Shown: positions 1,767-13,902, numbered from the stretch's first letter. The stretch: DNA of 14,590 nt from a virus (IMGVR_UViG_2563366895_000002:1-14590); one strand, 5' to 3'. Made by a program: numbers and translations. Notes: generated by a model not told the origin, from the sequence alone.

Positions 1767-1831
1767 GTGAGTCACCTCTGACTGAGAGTTTACTCACTTA
1801 GCCGCGTGTCCACTATTGCTGGGTAAGATCA

Positions 1832-1994
1832 GCGAACGGTGTATTACCGGTTCGCTACCAGAGAAGAACGGGAAGGAAAGGTGAGCACGAATCTGATTTT
1901 TAAGGAGTGTCGCCAGAGTGCCGCGATGAAACGCGTATTGAGGGTATATAAAAGGAACATCAATGGGTACACAATGATGAAACAGGTGAGTTGA
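1832..1994 (+). pseudogene. renD: C-terminal remnant of Ren-like protein (renD'), separated from its 5' part by the IS3 insertion
   Basis: Frame starting at 1839 translates VYYRFATREEREGKVSTNLIFKECRQSAAMKRVL..., resembling the lambda Ren C-terminus from memory; it begins immediately at the IS3 end (1831) and stops at 1992-1994. Confidence 0.55.
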
Positions 1995-2044
1995 TTTCAA
2001 ACTGTAGTACAATTCTCTCCAGTTTGAACAGGAAAGAATATGCT

Positions 2045-2377
2045 ATGAACCCTTATATTTATCTTGGTGGTGCAATACTTGCAGAGGTCATTGGTACAAC
2101 CTTAATGAAGTTTTCAGAAGGTTTTACACGGTTATGGCCATCTGTTGGTACAATTATTTGTTATTGTGCATCATTCTGGTTATTAGCTCAGACGCTGGCT
2201 TATATTCCTACAGGGATTGCTTATGCTATCTGGTCAGGAGTCGGTATTGTCCTGATTAGCTTACTGTCATGGGGATTTTTCGGCCAACGGCTGGACCTGC
2301 CAGCCATTATAGGCATGATGTTGATTTGTGCCGGTGTGTTGGTTATTAATTTATTGTCACGAAGCACACCACATTAA
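2045..2377 (+). CDS. emrE: Small multidrug resistance (SMR) efflux transporter EmrE, 110 aa
   Basis: Translation MNPYIYLGGAILAEVIGTTLMKFSEGFTRLWPSVGTIICYCASFWLLAQTLAYIPTGIAYAIWSGVGIVLISLLSWGFFGQRLDLPAIIGMMLICAGVL.INLLSRSTPH matches EmrE from memory, including the conserved membrane-embedded Glu in the first helix (AILAEVIGT). ATG at 2045; the track's 1991 start is an upstream TTG. Confidence 0.95.
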   Translation: MNPYIYLGGAILAEVIGTTLMKFSEGFTRLWPSVGTIICYCASFWLLAQTLAYIPTGIAYAIWSGVGIVLISLLSWGFFGQRLDLPAIIGMMLICAGVLVINLLSRSTPH

Positions 2378-2408
2378 AAATAATTTGTTTCTAAACGACT
2401 AAAATATG

Positions 2409-2446
2409 GAGGCTCTTATATTTATATGAGCCTCGTTTTATGCTTT
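2409..2446 (+). terminator. Putative intrinsic terminator downstream of emrE
   Basis: GAGGCTC (2409-2415) pairs with GAGCCTC (2428-2434) around an AT-rich loop, followed by GTTTTATGCTTTTTG. Confidence 0.5.
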
Positions 2447-2633
2447 TTGTTAATGTCTTTATTTTTTTATGTATTCTTTTGTGCTTTCAAGATTATGGCG
2501 TAAGAAAATTGCAATACGATTATTGTTGTATATTCAAGATAATGTGACCTTAATTGTCTTTTTAAATAAAAATTAAACAAAAATTATATCTCACCACTAA
2601 GGTTTATAAAAGCATACGTTAGCAGGTGTCACC

Positions 2634-4160
2634 ATGAAAAAAGCCATAGCATATATGCGATTTTCATCACCAGGTCAGATGTCTGGCGACTCATTAAACC
2701 GACAGAGAAGACTTATTGCTGAATGGTTAAAGGTAAATAGTGATTATTATCTTGATACCATAACATATGAAGATTTAGGATTAAGTGCATTCAAAGGAAA
2801 GCATGCACAATCAGGAGCTTTTTCGGAATTTTTAGATGCTATAGAGCATGGTTATATATTGCCAGGAACTACATTGTTAGTTGAAAGTCTGGACAGACTT
2901 TCAAGAGAAAAAGTCGGTGAAGCGATTGAGCGTCTGAAATTGATTTTGAATCACGGTATTGATGTTATAACTCTTTGCGATAATACAGTCTATAATATTG
3001 ACTCTTTGAATGATCCATATTCATTAATAAAAGCCATACTTATAGCACAAAGGGCAAATGAAGAAAGCGAGATAAAGTCAAGTCGGGTTAAATTATCATG
3101 GAAGAAAAAACGGCAGGATGCACTGGAGTCAGGCACGATTATGACGGCGTCTTGTCCGAGATGGCTCTCCTTAGATGACAAAAGAACGGCTTTTGTTCCA
3201 GACCCCGACAGGGTGAAAACTATTGAGCTAATTTTTAAACTCAGGATGGAAAGGCGCTCATTGAATGCAATAGCCAAGTATTTAAATGATCATGCTGTAA
3301 AGAATTTCTCAGGAAAAGAAAGTGCATGGGGACCTTCTGTAATTGAAAAATTATTAGCGAATAAAGCTCTGATAGGTATATGCGTACCTTCATATCGTGC
3401 AAGAGGTAAAGGAATAAGTGAAATCGCTGGCTATTATCCCAGAGTCATATCAGATGATTTGTTTTACGCTGTGCAGGAAATTCGGTTGGCACCTTTTGGT
3501 ATTAGCAATAGTAGCAAAAACCCTATGTTGATAAATCTACTTCGAACAGTTATGAAGTGCGAGGCTTGTGGTAATACCATGATTGTTCATGCGGTATCTG
3601 GAAGTTTGCATGGCTATTATGTTTGTCCGATGAGAAGACTGCATCGATGTGACAGGCCATCAATAAAGAGAGATTTGGTTGATTATAATATCATTAATGA
3701 GTTGCTTTTTAATTGTAGTAAAATCCAACCAGTTGAAAACAAGAAAGATGCTAATGAAACTTTAGAGTTGAAAATTATTGAGCTCCAGATGAAAATTAAT
3801 AATTTAATTGCTGCATTATCTGTTGCGCCTGAAGTTACCGCTATAGCAGAAAAAATCAGAGTATTAGATAAGGAATTACGAAGGGCTTCTGTATCATTAA
3901 AAACTTTGAAGAGTAAAGCGGTGAGCTCACTTGGTGATTTTCATGCTATTGACTTAACCAGTAAAAATGGGCGAGAGCTATGTCGTACACTTGCCTATAA
4001 AACATTCGAAAAAATCATAATCAATACAGATAATAAAACCTGTGATATCTATTTTATGAATGGCATTGTTTTTAAACACTATCCTTTAATGAAAACAATA
4101 TCCGCCCAGCAGGCGATAAGTACTCTCAAATATATGGTTGATGGTGAGGTTTATTTTTGA
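2634..4160 (+). CDS. ybcK: Large serine recombinase (resolvase/invertase-type N-terminal domain), YbcK-like, 508 aa
   Basis: N-terminal YMRFSSPGQ motif with the presumptive catalytic Ser; a Cys-rich segment (CEACGN...CPMRRLHRC) typical of large serine recombinases. Matches DLP12 YbcK by length and sequence from memory. ATG at 2634 with AGGTG 6 nt upstream. Gene is visibly AT-rich. Confidence 0.85.
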   Translation: MKKAIAYMRFSSPGQMSGDSLNRQRRLIAEWLKVNSDYYLDTITYEDLGLSAFKGKHAQSGAFSEFLDAIEHGYILPGTTLLVESLDRLSREKVGEAIERLKLILNHGIDVITLCDNTVYNIDSLNDPYSLIKAILIAQRANEESEIKSSRVKLSWKKKRQDALESGTIMTASCPRWLSLDDKRTAFVPDPDRVKTIELIFKLRMERRSLNAIAKYLNDHAVKNFSGKESAWGPSVIEKLLANKALIGICVPSYRARGKGISEIAGYYPRVISDDLFYAVQEIRLAPFGISNSSKNPMLINLLRTVMKCEACGNTMIVHAVSGSLHGYYVCPMRRLHRCDRPSIKRDLVDYNIINELLFNCSKIQPVENKKDANETLELKIIELQMKINNLIAALSVAPEVTAIAEKIRVLDKELRRASVSLKTLKSKAVSSLGDFHAIDLTSKNGRELCRTLAYKTFEKIIINTDNKTCDIYFMNGIVFKHYPLMKTISAQQAISTLKYMVDGEVYF

Positions 4161-4271
4161 GTAATAATCACTTTTTCAACCGTGCTATAGTAAGAAAGTT
4201 AGGTAAGTACAATAAAATTATCTATCCTGAACGAAGCGTCCTGAGCTATGGTTTTACTATAGGGACTGCCA

Positions 4272-4589
4272 ATGGATGCTGGCGTTCTCGTTCTAGCAGT
4301 TCAACAATCCCCAATCACAAAACAATTCACTGATAACGAACTTTGCACACTCGCCTGGTTATGGCGAGCAGGGAATGTGATGTTAATTGCCTACCAGAAC
4401 GTTACTCATCTTCTTCAGGATGCGGAGCATGGTGAAGCTGGTCACTTCACTTCCATCGAGCAAGAATATCCCCAGATACTCAACAGAGCGCGAGCAATCC
4501 TCGTCCGAGAAACGGCACATGTAAAACTTCAGCCGTGGCAGGATGATAAGTGGAGTCGAGTATTGCCGTATTTGCGTCAAATCTGTTAG
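4272..4589 (+). CDS. Hypothetical protein, 105 aa, no family recognised
   Basis: ATG-initiated ORF with GC content near the host average, flanked by AT-rich DNA. No motif I can assign and no convincing Shine-Dalgarno seen; may be a gene remnant. Confidence 0.35.
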   Translation: MDAGVLVLAVQQSPITKQFTDNELCTLAWLWRAGNVMLIAYQNVTHLLQDAEHGEAGHFTSIEQEYPQILNRARAILVRETAHVKLQPWQDDKWSRVLPYLRQIC

Positions 4590-4686
4590 GAGTATAGCCG
4601 CCAGCCATGAGTGTTGTATTAAAACAAGGATGTCTATATATGGGATAGCGAGAGTATGAATATCAGTTATTTTGAGAGTTAACTGA

Positions 4687-4710
4687 TTGTGAAATTAGTT
4701 TTTTTCACAA
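4687..4710. promoter_or_regulatory. Inverted repeat TTGTGAAA-N8-TTTCACAA upstream of the 309-aa ORF; candidate operator
   Basis: Perfect 8-bp arms at 4687-4694 and 4703-4710 in an AT-rich intergenic region about 85 bp upstream of the ATG at 4794. Confidence 0.25.
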
Positions 4711-4793
4711 ACGAGTGGGGTTACTATGATGAGTGTTCTAATGCATAGGGAACACCTAATTTTTTCAATGAATTCAAATTGATAGGATCAAAA

Positions 4794-5723
4794 ATGGCAC
4801 AACAGAGAACTACCTCCCTCAGATCCATACCTTTAGACTTAGATGTTAAGCAAGAGGCTGTCATTAACGGTATAGAAATGGGGGTACTCGATAACGGAAT
4901 TCCGTACCTTACTCAGAATGGGTTGGCAAATGTTTGTGGTGTTCAGCGTTTGCGAATCAAGGAAATTACCGATGAGTGGGCTCAATCCGTTGAGAACGGT
5001 ATTTTCAAAAAAGGAAGAATGACTTTTATTGGTACATATCTTCTTAATGAAGGTTTTACAGATGAAAAACTTTATATACCAATAATTCGAAATGGTGTTG
5101 AGTACCATGCTTATCCAGATGTTGTATGCATGGCTATACTTGAATACTATGCCTTTGAAGCAAAACAAGCAGAAAGTGAGACTGCAATTAGATCTTACAG
5201 AGAGCTTGCTAAAAAAGGCCTCAAGACATTTATATACGAGGCGCTAAAATATCAACCGGAGGACCCGTGGAGGCATTACCATGACAGAGTATCTTTATTA
5301 AAAGATAAGGGAACCATACCTGATGGGTATTTCATTATATTTAATGAAATTGCAGGTATGATGGTAGATCTCATCAATGCTGGATTAGCGATTAATCAGC
5401 ATACCGTACCTGATGGCAGTGTTGGTTCTTGCTGGGCGCGTCACTGGAAAGCAAAGGGGTTAGCAACAGAATTTGGAGAAAGAGTAGACTGTGAGCATTA
5501 TTACCCTGAAGATTTTCTTCAGGCAAGTTCCAATCCTCAGATCATTAATGCCTATCCTGATTCTGCATTGTCAGAGTTTCGTAGATGGTTTAAGCATGAA
5601 TATTTAACCACAAAGTTCCCACCGTATATTCTTAAAAAATCAAACGTGCTTCCTGGTGGTACAGAAGATGCTAATCGTCTGATAGAAGCTTTCAAAAAAT
5701 CAGAGCTAGAAAATAAACCATAA
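4794..5723 (+). CDS. Hypothetical protein, 309 aa, unknown function; candidate prophage cargo or defence protein
   Basis: ATG at 4794 preceded by AGGA at 4784-4787 (the track's 4779 start is an upstream TTG). Long clean ORF, visibly AT-rich, no transmembrane or signal sequence evident. N-terminal segment (GIEMGVLDNGIPYLTQNGLANVCGVQRLRIKEITDEW) is loosely reminiscent of KilA-N/Bro-N DNA-binding domains; this is unverified. Confidence 0.6.
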   Translation: MAQQRTTSLRSIPLDLDVKQEAVINGIEMGVLDNGIPYLTQNGLANVCGVQRLRIKEITDEWAQSVENGIFKKGRMTFIGTYLLNEGFTDEKLYIPIIRNGVEYHAYPDVVCMAILEYYAFEAKQAESETAIRSYRELAKKGLKTFIYEALKYQPEDPWRHYHDRVSLLKDKGTIPDGYFIIFNEIAGMMVDLINAGLAINQHTVPDGSVGSCWARHWKAKGLATEFGERVDCEHYYPEDFLQASSNPQIINAYPDSALSEFRRWFKHEYLTTKFPPYILKKSNVLPGGTEDANRLIEAFKKSELENKP

Positions 5724-5821
5724 TTGTTTTTTGGCTTTTGATTTTACATAATCATTTTGCCATAATCATGTCATCGGAGCCTGAACAACTCCGGTGACTT
5801 CTGCGCTAAACGGGGACGTTT

Positions 5822-5923
5822 ATGCGCACATACAATCCAAACTCTCTTCTCCCTTCACAGATGCAGAGATGCACCTGCGATTTTTTGCATCCAGCGTTTG
5901 ACCTCTGCGGAGGTGAAGCGTGA
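5822..5923 (+). CDS. ylcH: Small protein YlcH-like, 33 aa
   Basis: [36 protein letters not shown] whose stop overlaps the ybcN GTG start (GTGA); position and size match DLP12 ylcH from memory. Confidence 0.45.
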
Positions 5924-6375
5924 ATCTCCCACAAGATGGCATCAAATTACATCGCGGTAACTTCACCGCTATCGGTCGGCAGATCCAGCCTTATCTGGAG
6001 GAGGGCAAATGCTTTCGCATGGTGCTTAAACCGTGGCGTGAGAAACGCAGTCTTTCCCAGAATGCACTCAGCCACATGTGGTACAGCGAAATCAGTGAAT
6101 ACCTCATCAACAGGGGTAAAACGTTCGCCACTCCAGCTTGGGTAAAAGATGCTCTCAAACACACATATCTCGGTTATGAAACCAAAGACCTGGTTGATGT
6201 CGTAACCGGTGATATCACCACTATCCAGTCGTTACGCCATACCTCCGATCTTGATACCGGAGAGATGTATGTCTTCCTGTGTAAGGTTGAAGCCTGGGCG
6301 GTGAATATTGGCTGCCACCTGACTATTCCGCAGAGCTGCGAGTTCCAGCTGCTCCGTGACAAGCAGGAGGCGTAA
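5920..6375 (+). CDS. ybcN: YbcN, NinB/Orf-like DNA-binding protein, 151 aa
   Basis: GTG start at 5920 with GGAGG upstream; translation matches DLP12 YbcN from memory. Confidence 0.85.
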
Positions 6376-6545
6376 TGGCTACACCGCTTATTCGTGTCAT
6401 GAACGGACACATCTACAGAGTATCAAATCGTCGTAAGCGTAAGCCTGAGCCGAAGCCATCCGAAATACCAACACTGCTCGGATATACCGCTAGCCTGGTT
6501 GATAAAAAATGGTTGCGACTGGCAGCAAGGAGGAATCATGGCTGA
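6375..6545 (+). CDS. ninE: NinE-like protein, 56 aa
   Basis: ATG overlaps the ybcN stop (TAATG); translation [56 protein letters not shown]. Below the track's length cutoff, found by reading the sequence. Confidence 0.75.
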   Translation: MATPLIRVMNGHIYRVSNRRKRKPEPKPSEIPTLLGYTASLVDKKWLRLAARRNHG

Positions 6546-6828
6546 TTTGAGAAAAGCAGCGCGTGGTCGGGAATGCCAGGTAAGAATCCCTGGCGTATGT
6601 AATGGCAATTCTGAAACGTCTGTACTGGCACATATCCGGCTGGCTGGATTGTGCGGTACCGGTATCAAACCGCCAGACCTGATTGCCACCATTGCATGTT
6701 CTGCCTGCCACGACGAAATCGACCGCCGCACACATTTTGTCGATGCTGCATATGCAAAAGAATGCGCGCTGGAAGGTATGGCGAGAACACAGGTTATTTG
6801 GCTGAAAGAGGGGGTTATTAAGGCGTGA
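6538..6828 (+). CDS. ybcO: YbcO, Cys/His-rich putative metal-binding nuclease-like protein, 96 aa
   Basis: ATG at 6538 overlapping the ninE 3' end; translation [24 protein letters not shown]...CSACHDEID matches YbcO from memory (the track's 6499 start is an upstream alternative). Confidence 0.8.
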
Positions 6829-7187
6829 ATACCTACAGCATCACATTACCCTGGCCTCCGAGCAATAATCGCTATTACCGCCATAATCGCGGGCGCACGC
6901 ACATCAGCGCAGAAGGGCAGGCATACCGCGATAACGTCACCCGAATCATTAAAAACGCAATGCTGGATATCGGCCTGGCTATGCCAGTGAAAATCCGTAT
7001 TGAGTGCCACATGCCGGATCGCCGTCGCCGTGACCTGGATAATCTGCAAAAAGCCGCTTTTGACGCACTCACCAAAGCAGGTTTCTGGCTGGATGATGCT
7101 CAGGTCGTTGATTACCGCGTTGTGAAGATGCCTGTTACCAAAGGTGGGAGGCTGGAACTGACCATCACCGAAATGGGGAATGAATGA
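6825..7187 (+). CDS. rusA: RusA Holliday junction resolvase, 120 aa
   Basis: GTG at 6825 overlapping the ybcO stop (GTGA); translation [36 protein letters not shown]... matches RusA from memory. Confidence 0.9.
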
Positions 7188-7324
7188 TGTTTGAGTTTTA
7201 TATGGCAGAACTTCTTCGCCACCGCTGGGGGCATCTGCGCTTATATCGTTTCCCCGGTTCTGTTTTGACCGATTACCGAATACTGAAGAATTACGCCAAA
7301 ACCCTGACAGGAGCAGGAGTATGA
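7184..7324 (+). CDS. ylcG: YlcG-like small protein, 46 aa
   Basis: ATG overlapping the rusA stop; translation [46 protein letters not shown]. Confidence 0.6.
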
Positions 7325-7409
7325 AGTCAGAGATAACAATCAACTAATACTGTTTTGTTGATTTTTGCTTGTAATTGGCGTTCTGGTCTGATTTTTGTGG
7401 AGTAAGTTG

Positions 7410-7793
7410 ATGCGTGATATTCAGATGGTTCTTGAGCGTTGGGGAGCGTGGGCGGCTAATAATCATGAAGATGTGACCTGGTCGTCCATTGCCGCCGGTT
7501 TTAAGGGATTAATTACTTCAAAAGTAAAATCTCGCCCGCAATGTTGTGACGATGACGCGATGATTATTTGCGGGTGCATGGCCCGTCTGAAAAAGAACAA
7601 CAGCGATTTGCACGATTTATTAGTAGATTATTATGTAGTCGGTATGACATTCATGTCACTGGCAGGTAAGCATTGCTGCTCTGATGGTTATATCGGGAAA
7701 AGGTTACAGAAGGCTGAGGGCATAATTGAAGGGATGTTAATGGCATTAGATATCCGGTTAGAGATGGATATCGTTGTTAATAACTCTAATTAA
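7410..7793 (+). CDS. quuD: Late-gene antiterminator Q homolog (QuuD), 127 aa
   Basis: ATG at 7410 (the track's 7395 start is an upstream TTG); translation [24 protein letters not shown]... with the Cys cluster [12 protein letters not shown]; sits immediately upstream of the hairpin cluster and lysis genes. Confidence 0.85.
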
Positions 7794-7810
7794 TATGCCA
7801 ATTGTTTACT

Positions 7811-7844
7811 AAAAATTATTAAAAATGGGGCGTTGAGACGCCCC
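7811..7844 (-). terminator. GC-rich hairpin GGGGCG-TTGAGA-CGCCCC with U-tract on the minus strand
   Basis: Stem 7827-7832 / 7839-7844; the + strand upstream is AAAAATTATTAAAAAT, which reads as a T-tract after the hairpin on the minus strand. Could terminate nmpC transcription or be part of the late promoter region; strand assignment is uncertain. Confidence 0.4.
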
Positions 7845-7883
7845 CAAAAATAAAGGGTAATATATAACAGAAGGTTTATATAG

Positions 7884-7972
7884 TTAGAAGCAAGGTTGTG
7901 CTTCTAAAGGAAGTGGCTTGAGGGAGCCACTTATATGTTGGGGAGGCAACGCCTCCCGCAACATATCTTTTT
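7884..7972 (+). terminator. Three consecutive hairpins downstream of quuD, the last followed by CTTTTT (tR'-like intrinsic terminator)
   Basis: Hairpins at 7884-7907 (TTAGAAGCA/TGCTTCTAA), 7911-7932 (AAGTGGCT/AGCCACTT) and 7933-7966 (ATATGTTGGGGAGGC/GCCTCCCGCAACATAT), then T-run 7967-7972. Position between Q and the lysis genes fits a lambdoid late leader/terminator. Confidence 0.5.
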
Positions 7973-7982
7973 CGTAATCAGA

Positions 7983-9080
7983 TTAGAACTGGTAAACCAG
8001 ACCTACAGCAACGATGTCATCAGTGCTTACACCGAGTGCTTTAGTGAAGTCATTTTTGTCAAGCAGGTTGATTTTGTAATCAACGAAAGTAGACATATTT
8101 TTGTTGAAGTAATAGGTTGCACCTACATCAACATATTTGACTAAGTCCTGATCGCCCCATACTCCAAGATCTTTACCTTTAGATTGCAGGTAAGCAACGG
8201 ACGGACGCAGACCGAAATCGAACTGATATTGTGCAACAGCTTCGAAGTTTTGGGCTTTATTAGCAACGAAGTGATCAGCAAATACAGTCATATTCTGGGT
8301 TTCAGAATAGGTAGTGGCCAGGTAAATGTTGTTAGCGTCATATTTCAGACCTGCGGCCCAAACTTCTGCATTTTTACCGGAAGCAAATACTTCAGGAAGA
8401 ACTTTCCCTGCATTAACTTGAGTGTCGGTACGATCAGATTTCGCATAAGTTGCACCGATACCGAATCCTTCGTATTCATAGGTAGCAGAGAAACCGAAGC
8501 CATCACCGTTACCTTCAGTGTAGTTATCGAAATCGCTACGATCGTTTTTGCCTTGGTACTGAGCAGCAAAGTTCAGACCATCAACCAGACCAAAGAAGTC
8601 GTTGTTACGATAGGTTGCAACACCAGTGGTGCGACCAGTCATGAACACATCTGTTTGGGTCCAGGTATCGCCACCGAATTCTGGCAGAACGTCAGTCCAC
8701 GCACCGATGTCGTATGCTACACCGTAGTTACGGCCGTAATCGATTGAGCCGTAGTCACCGAATTTCAGGCCTGCAAATGCAAGACGGGTTTTGTCTTTGG
8801 AGGAACCTTGAGATTCAGCGCGGTTGCCTTTGAATTCATATTCCCACTGACCGAAACCAGTCAGTTGATCGTTGATTTGGGTTTCACCTTTGAAGCCAAG
8901 ACGGGCATAAGTAGTATCACCATCATCTGCATCATTAGAGGAGAAGTAGTGCTTGGCATTAACTTTCCCGTACAGATCCAGCTTGTTACTGTCTTTATTA
9001 TAAATTTCAGCTGCCTGAGCAGACATCGCCATCAGTACTGATGCAGCTACAGCAGAAATTGCCACTGTTAATTTTTTCAT
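7983..9080 (-). CDS. nmpC: Outer membrane porin NmpC (OmpC/OmpD family), intact 365 aa with signal peptide
   Basis: Translation begins [29 protein letters not shown] and ends with the porin C-terminal ...VAVGLVYQF; full length with no interruption. Confidence 0.9.
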
Positions 9081-13327: not shown

Positions 13328-13902
13328 TGGCATTCAGAATGAGTGAACAACCACGGACCATAAAAATTTATAATCTGCTGGCCGGAACTAATGAATTTAT
13401 TGGTGAAGGTGACGCATATATTCCGCCTCATACAGGTCTGCCAGCAAACAGTACCGATATTGCACCACCAGATATTCCTGCTGGCTTTGTGGCTGTTTTC
13501 AACAGTGATAAGGCATCGTGGCATCTCGTTGAAGACCATCGGGGTAAAACGGTTTATGACGTAGCGTCAGGGGACGCGTTATTTATTTCTGAACTCGGTC
13601 CGTTACCGGAAAATGTTACCTGGTTATCGCCGGAAGGGGAGTTTCAGAAGTGGAACGGCACAGCCTGGGTGAAAGATGCAGAAGCAGAAAAACTGTTCCG
13701 GATCCGAGAGGCGGAAGAAACAAAAAACAGCCTGATGCAGGTAGCCAGTGAGCATATTGCGCCACTTCAGGATGCTGTAGATCTGGAAATCGCAACGGAG
13801 GAAGAAACCTCATTGCTGGAAGCCTGGAAAAAGTATCGGGTGTTGCTGAACCGTGTTGATACGTCAACTGCACAGGATATTGAATGGCCAGCACTGCCGT
13901 AG
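13327..13902 (+). CDS. tfaR: Tail fibre assembly protein (Tfa; TfaR/TfaQ-like), 191 aa
   Basis: ATG overlaps the stop of the upstream fibre ORF (TAATG); translation [54 protein letters not shown]... matches Rac/Qin-type Tfa from memory. Confidence 0.9.

Follow-up and report, generated by a model that had tools for sequence, protein, structure and literature searches.

BstA proteins, which share about 40% identity with one another, act by abortive infection, co-localise with phage DNA and stop a broad range of phages from replicating (Owen et al., 2021; PMC8585504). The parent prophage is freed by aba, an element at the start of the gene that works against the cognate BstA only and at high copy only, and each tested BstA locus has a cognate aba (Owen et al., 2021). 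In BTP1, aba is 63 bp long, reaches from about −29 to +34, and is bounded by two CCCGCC repeats lying 56-57 nt apart across the start codon. Changing one base in either repeat abolishes self-immunity in cis as well as in trans (Owen et al., 2021; PMC8585504). The tested proteins are those of BTP1 (STMMW_03531), of E. coli NCTC10963 (BstA-Ec, E4V89_RS07420) and of Klebsiella Kp52.145, and for BstA-Ec both defence and a cognate aba within the locus were shown by experiment. BTP1 BstA restricts lambda vir, phi80, P1 and T7, but neither T4 nor T5. The only E. coli prophages in which bstA was found are lambda-like ones at a tRNA-Arg hotspot (Hochhauser et al., 2023). A literature search for more recent studies of the mechanism or structure of BstA or aba returned brief mentions only beyond Owen et al. 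(2021).

Like BstA, RexAB of phage lambda is accessory cargo of a lambdoid phage and confers abortive infection from the prophage. Its proteins, however, are unrelated to BstA; it is a two-gene system that depolarises the membrane, and it is located in the immunity region. We know of no DNA-based self-immunity element for RexAB.

We analysed a stretch of viral DNA of 14,590 nt (IMGVR_UViG_2563366895_000002), referred to here as the window, in which a preliminary description had picked out one ORF as candidate novel cargo or an anti-phage gene. The features of the locus are listed below in window coordinates.

4200..5735, no strand: variable cassette of the DLP12 accessory slot, 1.5 kb, comprising the P22AR_C ORF and bstA
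4272..4589, + strand: stand-alone P22AR C-terminal domain (P22AR_C) ORF, 105 aa, in the same cassette as bstA
4662..4710, + strand: two adjacent AT-rich inverted repeats, 5′ of the candidate promoter
4702..4730, + strand: candidate own promoter of bstA, TTTTCA-17-TATGAT, from a consensus scan (9/12 matches)
4747..4815, + strand: candidate cognate aba element, with repeat copies 57-58 nt apart across the start codon
4784..4787, + strand: Shine-Dalgarno AGGA, 6 nt upstream of the start codon, as seen in the sequence itself
4794..5723, + strand: bstA-family gene, RefSeq WP_000068668.1, ATG start, 309 aa plus stop
4845..5243, + strand: N-terminal putative DNA-binding domain, residues ~18-150, KilA-N-like according to Owen et al.
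5253..5693, + strand: C-terminal BstA_C domain, residues ~154-300, putative effector
5317-5326 and 5407-5416, + strand: two copies of TACCTGATGG, encoding IPDG and VPDG

The 309-aa ORF was found where it had been reported, on the + strand with an ATG start, and its product belongs to the BstA family over its full length. The PADLOC model BstA PDLC02356 aligned with residues 10-304 on model positions 5-291 of 292 (E 3.6e-121), and PHROG 6287, 'BstA abortive infection system, replication inhibitor', was covered at positions 2-303 of 304 (E 1.8e-136). By tblastn the protein showed 40.0% identity to BTP1 BstA over residues 3-308 (99% of the query, E 1e-64); alignment A2, with 53 invariant columns across 8 diverse sequences, gave 41% identity to BTP1 BstA and 39% to the BstA-Ec type. 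Precomputed domain annotation places BstA_C, PF26567 (PF26567.1), on the identical cluster P0001 and on every homologue among those listed except the truncated P0039, and the recent PGAP name for WP_000068668.1 is 'BstA C-terminal domain-containing protein'. The same protein is annotated in E. coli NCTC8623 at LR134234 4556999-4557928. This interval contains the NCTC8623 coordinates given in Table S1 of Owen et al. (2021; PMC8585504), which lists 72 representative BstA homologues, the NCTC8623 locus included. Because of the HMM matches, the identity to BTP1 BstA, the Table S1 locus, the PGAP name and PF26567, we regard the family assignment as secure and as already public. In a local Pfam-A scan the protein gave one sub-threshold crAss_CARG1 match and nothing usable; BstA_C (PF26567) did not match there, probably because the model is newer than our copy. 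An NCBIfam scan of the protein gave zero matches.

The earlier guess of a BstA-like, single-gene prophage defence or abortive-infection protein is thus supported by PADLOC, PHROG, the homology to BTP1 BstA and the listing in Owen et al. (2021), and the profile-HMM searches it had proposed returned end-to-end BstA matches in both PADLOC and PHROGs. The description of the ORF as novel was wrong, because the protein is catalogued both in RefSeq and in the list of Owen et al. (2021). Nor is it the only ORF of the window that resists assignment, as had been stated, for the PADLOC and PHROGs HMM libraries assign it at once. A truncated form of 187 aa also occurs in E. coli (P0039, a cluster of 54 member sequences) and is 100% identical over 57% of the protein; therefore, some E. 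coli carry a broken copy.

Like BTP1 BstA, with which it shares homology over the full length (40-41% identity, 99% coverage), the window protein is prophage-borne and has two domains with a boundary near residue 155, and its gene has a candidate repeat 56-57 nt apart across the start codon. The two loci differ in gene position: in BTP1, bstA follows the cI repressor directly and presumably uses the same promoter, whereas the window gene lies between ybcK and ybcN. They also differ in the sequence of the repeat, which is CCCGCC in BTP1 and GAGAAC..ACCT in the window. Moreover, BTP1 BstA has been tested by experiment, whereas the window protein is known from its sequence. BstA-Ec is likewise a BstA of an E. 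coli lambdoid prophage, and its type, also found in strain 2012C-4431 (WP_000026554.1) and in phage CL707, has a 57-nt repeat, ATCCCTACA/ATCCCTGCA. It differs from the window protein in sequence (39% identity), in length (301 aa as annotated in 2012C-4431 versus 309 aa) and in location, which for BstA-Ec is the immunity region, between repressor and N. The possibility that the window protein is the tested BstA-Ec itself was considered and rejected. The cloning primer is absent from the window, the identity to the BstA-Ec type is only 39%, the match of NCTC10963 is 897 bp against 918 bp for the NCTC8623 entry in the same table, and the BstA-Ec gene is located after the repressor.

A closer relative is the BstA homologue of a Lonsdalea britannica prophage (P0007), which has 74% identity to the window protein, belongs to the same subfamily and carries a repeat of the same type, GGGAAC..CCCT / GAGATC..CCCT. 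It differs in having the canonical order of S24 repressor, bstA and N. Therefore, the E. coli copy and its relatives at 89-92% identity have moved to the nin region.

The architecture of the protein was modelled with AF2, giving two well-folded domains with a linker of low confidence between them, where pLDDT dips at residues 150-170 (whole protein: pLDDT 84, pTM 0.57). This split agrees with the domain boundary of BTP1 BstA, inferred at about residue 155 (Owen et al., 2021; PMC8585504). The modelled N-terminal domain is alpha/beta and resembles a small DNA-binding fold; the C-terminal domain modelled alone reached a pTM of 0.81. APSES and KilA-N domains are reportedly related, a relationship that Owen et al. 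(2021) credit to Iyer et al. (2002). Pfam KilA-N matched 0/41 family members at E≤1, with weak matches to HTH families in some, and Pfam Ant, Bro-N and P22_AR_N gave no match at E≤1 in the window protein and 40 relatives. The loose resemblance of the first 60-80 residues to KilA-N/Bro-N noted earlier, and the KilA-N call of Owen et al., were thus not recovered from the sequence. Searching the family profile against PDB sequences returned nothing below E 1, and Foldseek with the full model against the PDB returned nothing below E 0.1. For the C-terminal domain, the structure search found no convincing structural relative pointing to a biochemical activity.

We asked whether the protein could instead be an antirepressor or a Bro/KilA-type regulator of prophage transcription, with no part in defence. 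The predicted resemblance of the N-terminal domain to a small DNA-binding fold and the weak HTH-family matches are in keeping with such a role, and so is the neighbouring P22AR_C ORF, which lies 205 nt upstream in the same cassette and matches Pfam P22_AR_C (E 7.7e-14) and, at full length, PHROG 7640 (E 1.7e-69). However, the PHROG Ant families match this upstream 105-aa ORF and not the bstA-family protein, the Ant, Bro-N, KilA-N and P22_AR_N domains are absent from the 41 family members at the threshold given above, and the match to BstA runs from end to end, C-terminal domain included. The neighbour is itself inconstant, being absent upstream of bstA in the relatives at 89-92% identity and unlinked to it in other clades. 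A regulator of this kind is therefore extremely unlikely. The same lack of conserved linkage led us to reject the P22AR_C ORF and bstA as a two-gene system. In NCTC8623, the P22AR_C ORF is annotated as a pseudogene with an internal stop.

The two copies of TACCTGATGG had been noted before as an exact direct repeat encoding a repeated (I/V)PDG motif. Their coordinates and their coding of IPDG and VPDG hold, but the repeat carries no signal beyond chance. The copies lie 90 nt apart and extend to 14 nt with one mismatch; when the codons of the ORF were shuffled, 42% of the shuffled sequences held some repeated 10-mer and 10% held a 14-mer repeat with one mismatch. The PDG motifs are separate positions conserved in the family, with P176 and G178 nearly invariant and T204, P206 and D207 invariant, and no similarity was found in the sequences flanking them. 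The repeat was accordingly rejected as a DNA feature or internal duplication: its level is that of chance in the codon shuffles, and the PDG flanks are dissimilar. The two copies are two independent conserved protein motifs, with no repeat at the DNA level. A second motif, CCRTACCT, has four copies on the + strand within the ORF (at 4825, 4902, 5314 and 5404), one of them in a different reading frame. Although 0/5,000 codon shuffles reached four copies, this motif had been picked post hoc, and it was rejected because the largest family of 8-mers (≤1 mismatch) numbered 5 in the ORF and, at the median, 5 in the shuffles.

The window is 99.99% identical to E. coli WL164, where it is a defective DLP12-type prophage beside tRNA-Arg (argU). 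The tRNA-Arg hotspot of Hochhauser et al. (2023) is the present locus. In blastn against K-12, homology around the slot was confined to 1822-4199 and 5736-8049. Since the match to K-12 DLP12 breaks off at 4199 and restarts at 5736, the cassette at 4200-5735 replaces K-12 ybcL-ybcM. The position proposed in the preliminary description was thus borne out by blastn and the K-12 annotation. In order, the genes are intD, the IS3 remnant, a ren fragment, emrE, ylcJ, ybcK, the P22AR_C ORF and bstA, followed by a ylcH-like ORF, ybcN, ninE, ybcO, rusA, ylcG and quuD, and then by an intact porin gene, lysis genes, iss, and truncated packaging and tail genes. No repressor, early promoters, O/P genes, terminase or head genes were found in the window prophage. 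The IS3 remnant (1298-1840), inverted relative to K-12 IS3C, occupies the early region between intD and the ren fragment; because it replaces that region, the prophage is without repressor and replication genes.

The same cassette also occurs in prophages that look whole. In E. coli GE3 and 1410D004, an identical cassette sits in an apparently complete lambdoid prophage with an S24 or XRE-type repressor gene, a cro-like gene, O/P-type replication genes and terminase genes. In GE3, a SIR2-family gene adjoins an XRE-family regulator gene at the phage-repressor position (L001, 1050-2651) and probably gives this prophage a second defence gene. Variable presence across E. coli, which had been put forward as something to check, was confirmed: 104/5,426 complete E. 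coli genomes hold 80% or more of 4600-5900, and 2,832 of the 5,426 match some part of it.

Several further observations concern the surroundings of the cassette. Just past it, the segment 5715-5830, common to K-12 upstream of ylcH, folds at −39 kcal/mol (z −5.0), far more stably than shuffled sequences, with two strong hairpins, at ~5770-5798 and 5802-5828; Rfam gave no match for these hairpins, nor at or near the bstA locus. The porin gene (nmpC-type, 365 aa, 7983-9080, − strand) is intact, whereas the K-12 copy is split by IS5. A full-length Rfam IS009 match (226.7 bits) lies at 13670-13868 (+), inside the tail-fibre-assembly region.

The ORF had been called visibly more AT-rich than the flanking nin genes. 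This is correct, with a GC content of 39.0% in the ORF against 48.2% in the nin genes at 5920-7800, but it is not peculiar to the ORF, because the preceding gene, ybcK (36.2%), belongs to the same low-GC block. The Shine-Dalgarno and the upstream inverted repeat that had been reported were also located, the first as AGGA at 4784-4787 and the second as two perfect 8-nt pairs within 4662-4710: ATCAGTTA/TAACTGAT at 4662-4669/4680-4687 and TTGTGAAA/TTTCACAA at 4687-4694/4703-4710. Together they fold into adjacent hairpins at −13.6 kcal/mol, with a modest z of −2.8, and in the closest relatives these inverted repeats are not conserved.

Because the window bstA lies in the nin region, between ybcK and ylcH/ybcN, and not directly downstream of a repressor, constitutive expression in the lysogen cannot be assumed. 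The position downstream of the repressor is frequent in the BstA family, not obligatory. The only candidate promoter of the gene would be TTTTCA-17-TATGAT at 4702-4730. By score alone this site is at the level of chance, the count of promoter-like sites in the consensus scan being no higher than in shuffles, but relatives retain a −10-like block, TA..AT(A), at the corresponding position although their upstream DNA is otherwise divergent. The gene could instead be a passenger, intact but silent: in the nin region of a defunct prophage that has no active PR, it would go untranscribed in ordinary growth and give the cell no defence. The departure from the canonical repressor-coupled location, promoter-like scores that do not exceed shuffles and the loss of the repressor and early promoters would all be expected of such a passenger. 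Several observations speak against this. In comparison with the relatives at 89-92% identity, dN is ~0.06 and dS is saturated; strong purifying selection therefore acts on the protein. The ORF is also intact, and its sequence is 100% identical in every genome among the matches listed, of the 104 complete E. coli genomes that carry it. The relatives at 89-92% identity also have bstA in the nin region, and this entire nin-located subclade retains the gene. Together with the preserved −10-like block, this makes a silent passenger quite unlikely.

The BTP1 repeats led us to compare the start regions of other bstA genes. We took 80 BstA loci from IMG/VR together with BTP1 and other reference loci, reduced them to 70 distinct start regions, and scored direct repeats at all spacings from 30 to 90 nt. 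The best spacing was 56-58 nt in 32 of the 70 regions, against 3.4 expected under a uniform distribution, and in 30 of them it was exactly 57 nt. With stricter scoring, a repeat score of at least 8 was reached in 41% of the start regions versus 3-18% of control regions, and 21 of the 29 repeats at this level span the ATG. Pairs of the core C[AG]CC lie exactly 57 nt apart in 20/70 regions and 56 nt apart in 5, with no more than 3 at any other spacing. The repeat sequences are specific to clades, for example CCGGCCACC, AAGCCCGCCGCCCC, AACAAAAATATCGCGGG, AAAAGAGATCACCCT and ATCCCT(A/G)CA, the last being the repeat of the BstA-Ec type locus, which confers cognate immunity. Four independent GenBank phages outside the set of 70 regions showed the same architecture. 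In some clades, such as L036-L044, the repeat is undetectable.

In the window, the two copies are AGGGAACACCT at 4747-4757 and AGAGAACTACCT, within the coding sequence, at 4804-4815, with a conserved AATTCA at 4771-4776. One mismatch and a 1-nt offset make this repeat degenerate; its score of 4.5 is equalled by 3/56 other spacings and alone is not significant. Its copies nevertheless stand at the homologous position, where close relatives have clear repeats. No non-coding block is better conserved in the clade of the window than the upstream GAGAAC box, and codons R5 (AGA) and T7 (ACC) in the coding copy show no synonymous variation in 13 genes, a property of 10.8% of comparable codons gene-wide. 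These observations suggest that 4747-4815 is probably the cognate aba of the window bstA.

For the family as a whole, we propose that clade-specific repeats, often ending in C(A/G)CC and lying exactly 57 nt apart, constitute the cognate aba and at the same time the binding sites of BstA itself, GAGAAC..ACCT being the window version; in our judgement the case for this proposal is evenly balanced. Under such a rule, the leader 5′ of bstA would hold one repeat and its first codons the other. The text and supplements of Owen et al. (2021; PMC8585504) describe the repeat for BTP1 alone; therefore, a 57-nt repeat rule across the BstA family, as computed here, may be new. The repeats might instead be a translation or transcription signal, such as an autoregulatory operator, or the echo of a coding motif at the N-terminus, and have nothing to do with aba. 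In favour of such a role, the central conserved box abuts the Shine-Dalgarno, aba has been mapped in BTP1 only, and in some clades the repeat is undetectable. Against it, the single-base changes in either BTP1 repeat abolish self-immunity, the BstA-Ec type locus combines a 57-nt repeat with cognate immunity shown by experiment, and across clades the sequence varies while position and spacing are kept, as expected of a cognate recognition site. We hold a role unrelated to aba to be possible but, on balance, unlikely.

Taken as a whole, the locus is very likely explained by a prophage cargo gene for an abortive-infection protein of the BstA family, seated in the accessory slot of the nin region in a DLP12-like lambdoid prophage at argU. 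The mechanism proposed for it is modelled on its tested homologues, the BstA proteins of BTP1, E. coli NCTC10963 and Klebsiella Kp52.145. The analysis establishes that the protein belongs to the family, has two domains and is under purifying selection, and it defines the cassette boundaries and the repeat architecture; for the window gene itself we infer expression, a defence phenotype and aba function. The protein would be made in the uninfected cell, probably from its own promoter ~65 nt upstream. When a sensitive phage infects, it would gather at the replicating phage DNA by means of its N-terminal DNA-binding domain, and the conserved C-terminal domain would then block replication of that DNA, so that the cell dies with no progeny released. 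On replicating copies of the parent prophage, aba would neutralise the window variant of BstA and no other variant. As our own suggestion, aba might act by titrating the protein onto its own operator-like sites. BstA foci are not lost with high-copy aba (Owen et al., 2021; PMC8585504), and simple titration is therefore an uneasy fit. In the window, self-immunity is moot because the prophage is defective, lacking repressor, O/P, terminase and head genes, and bstA would act there as a fixed host defence.

In the form in which the question was put, little is gained, since the defence family and the hotspot are published and this member is catalogued; the parts worth following are only the 57-nt repeat rule and the relocation to the nin region. 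About 2% of complete E. coli genomes carry the window BstA variant in the DLP12 slot, and the variants of this slot, bstA versus K-12 ybcL-ybcM, form a clean natural pair for testing what the slot contributes. The exit of this subclade from the repressor operon to the nin region raises the question of how the gene is expressed in a lysogen. If the 57-nt rule is true, the specificity of aba would be predictable from sequence alone for any BstA, and a concrete DNA ligand would be available for studying DNA recognition by BstA. Once confirmed, the rule would turn aba from an unexplained element into a predictable motif, and would suggest that BstA binds the start of its own gene.
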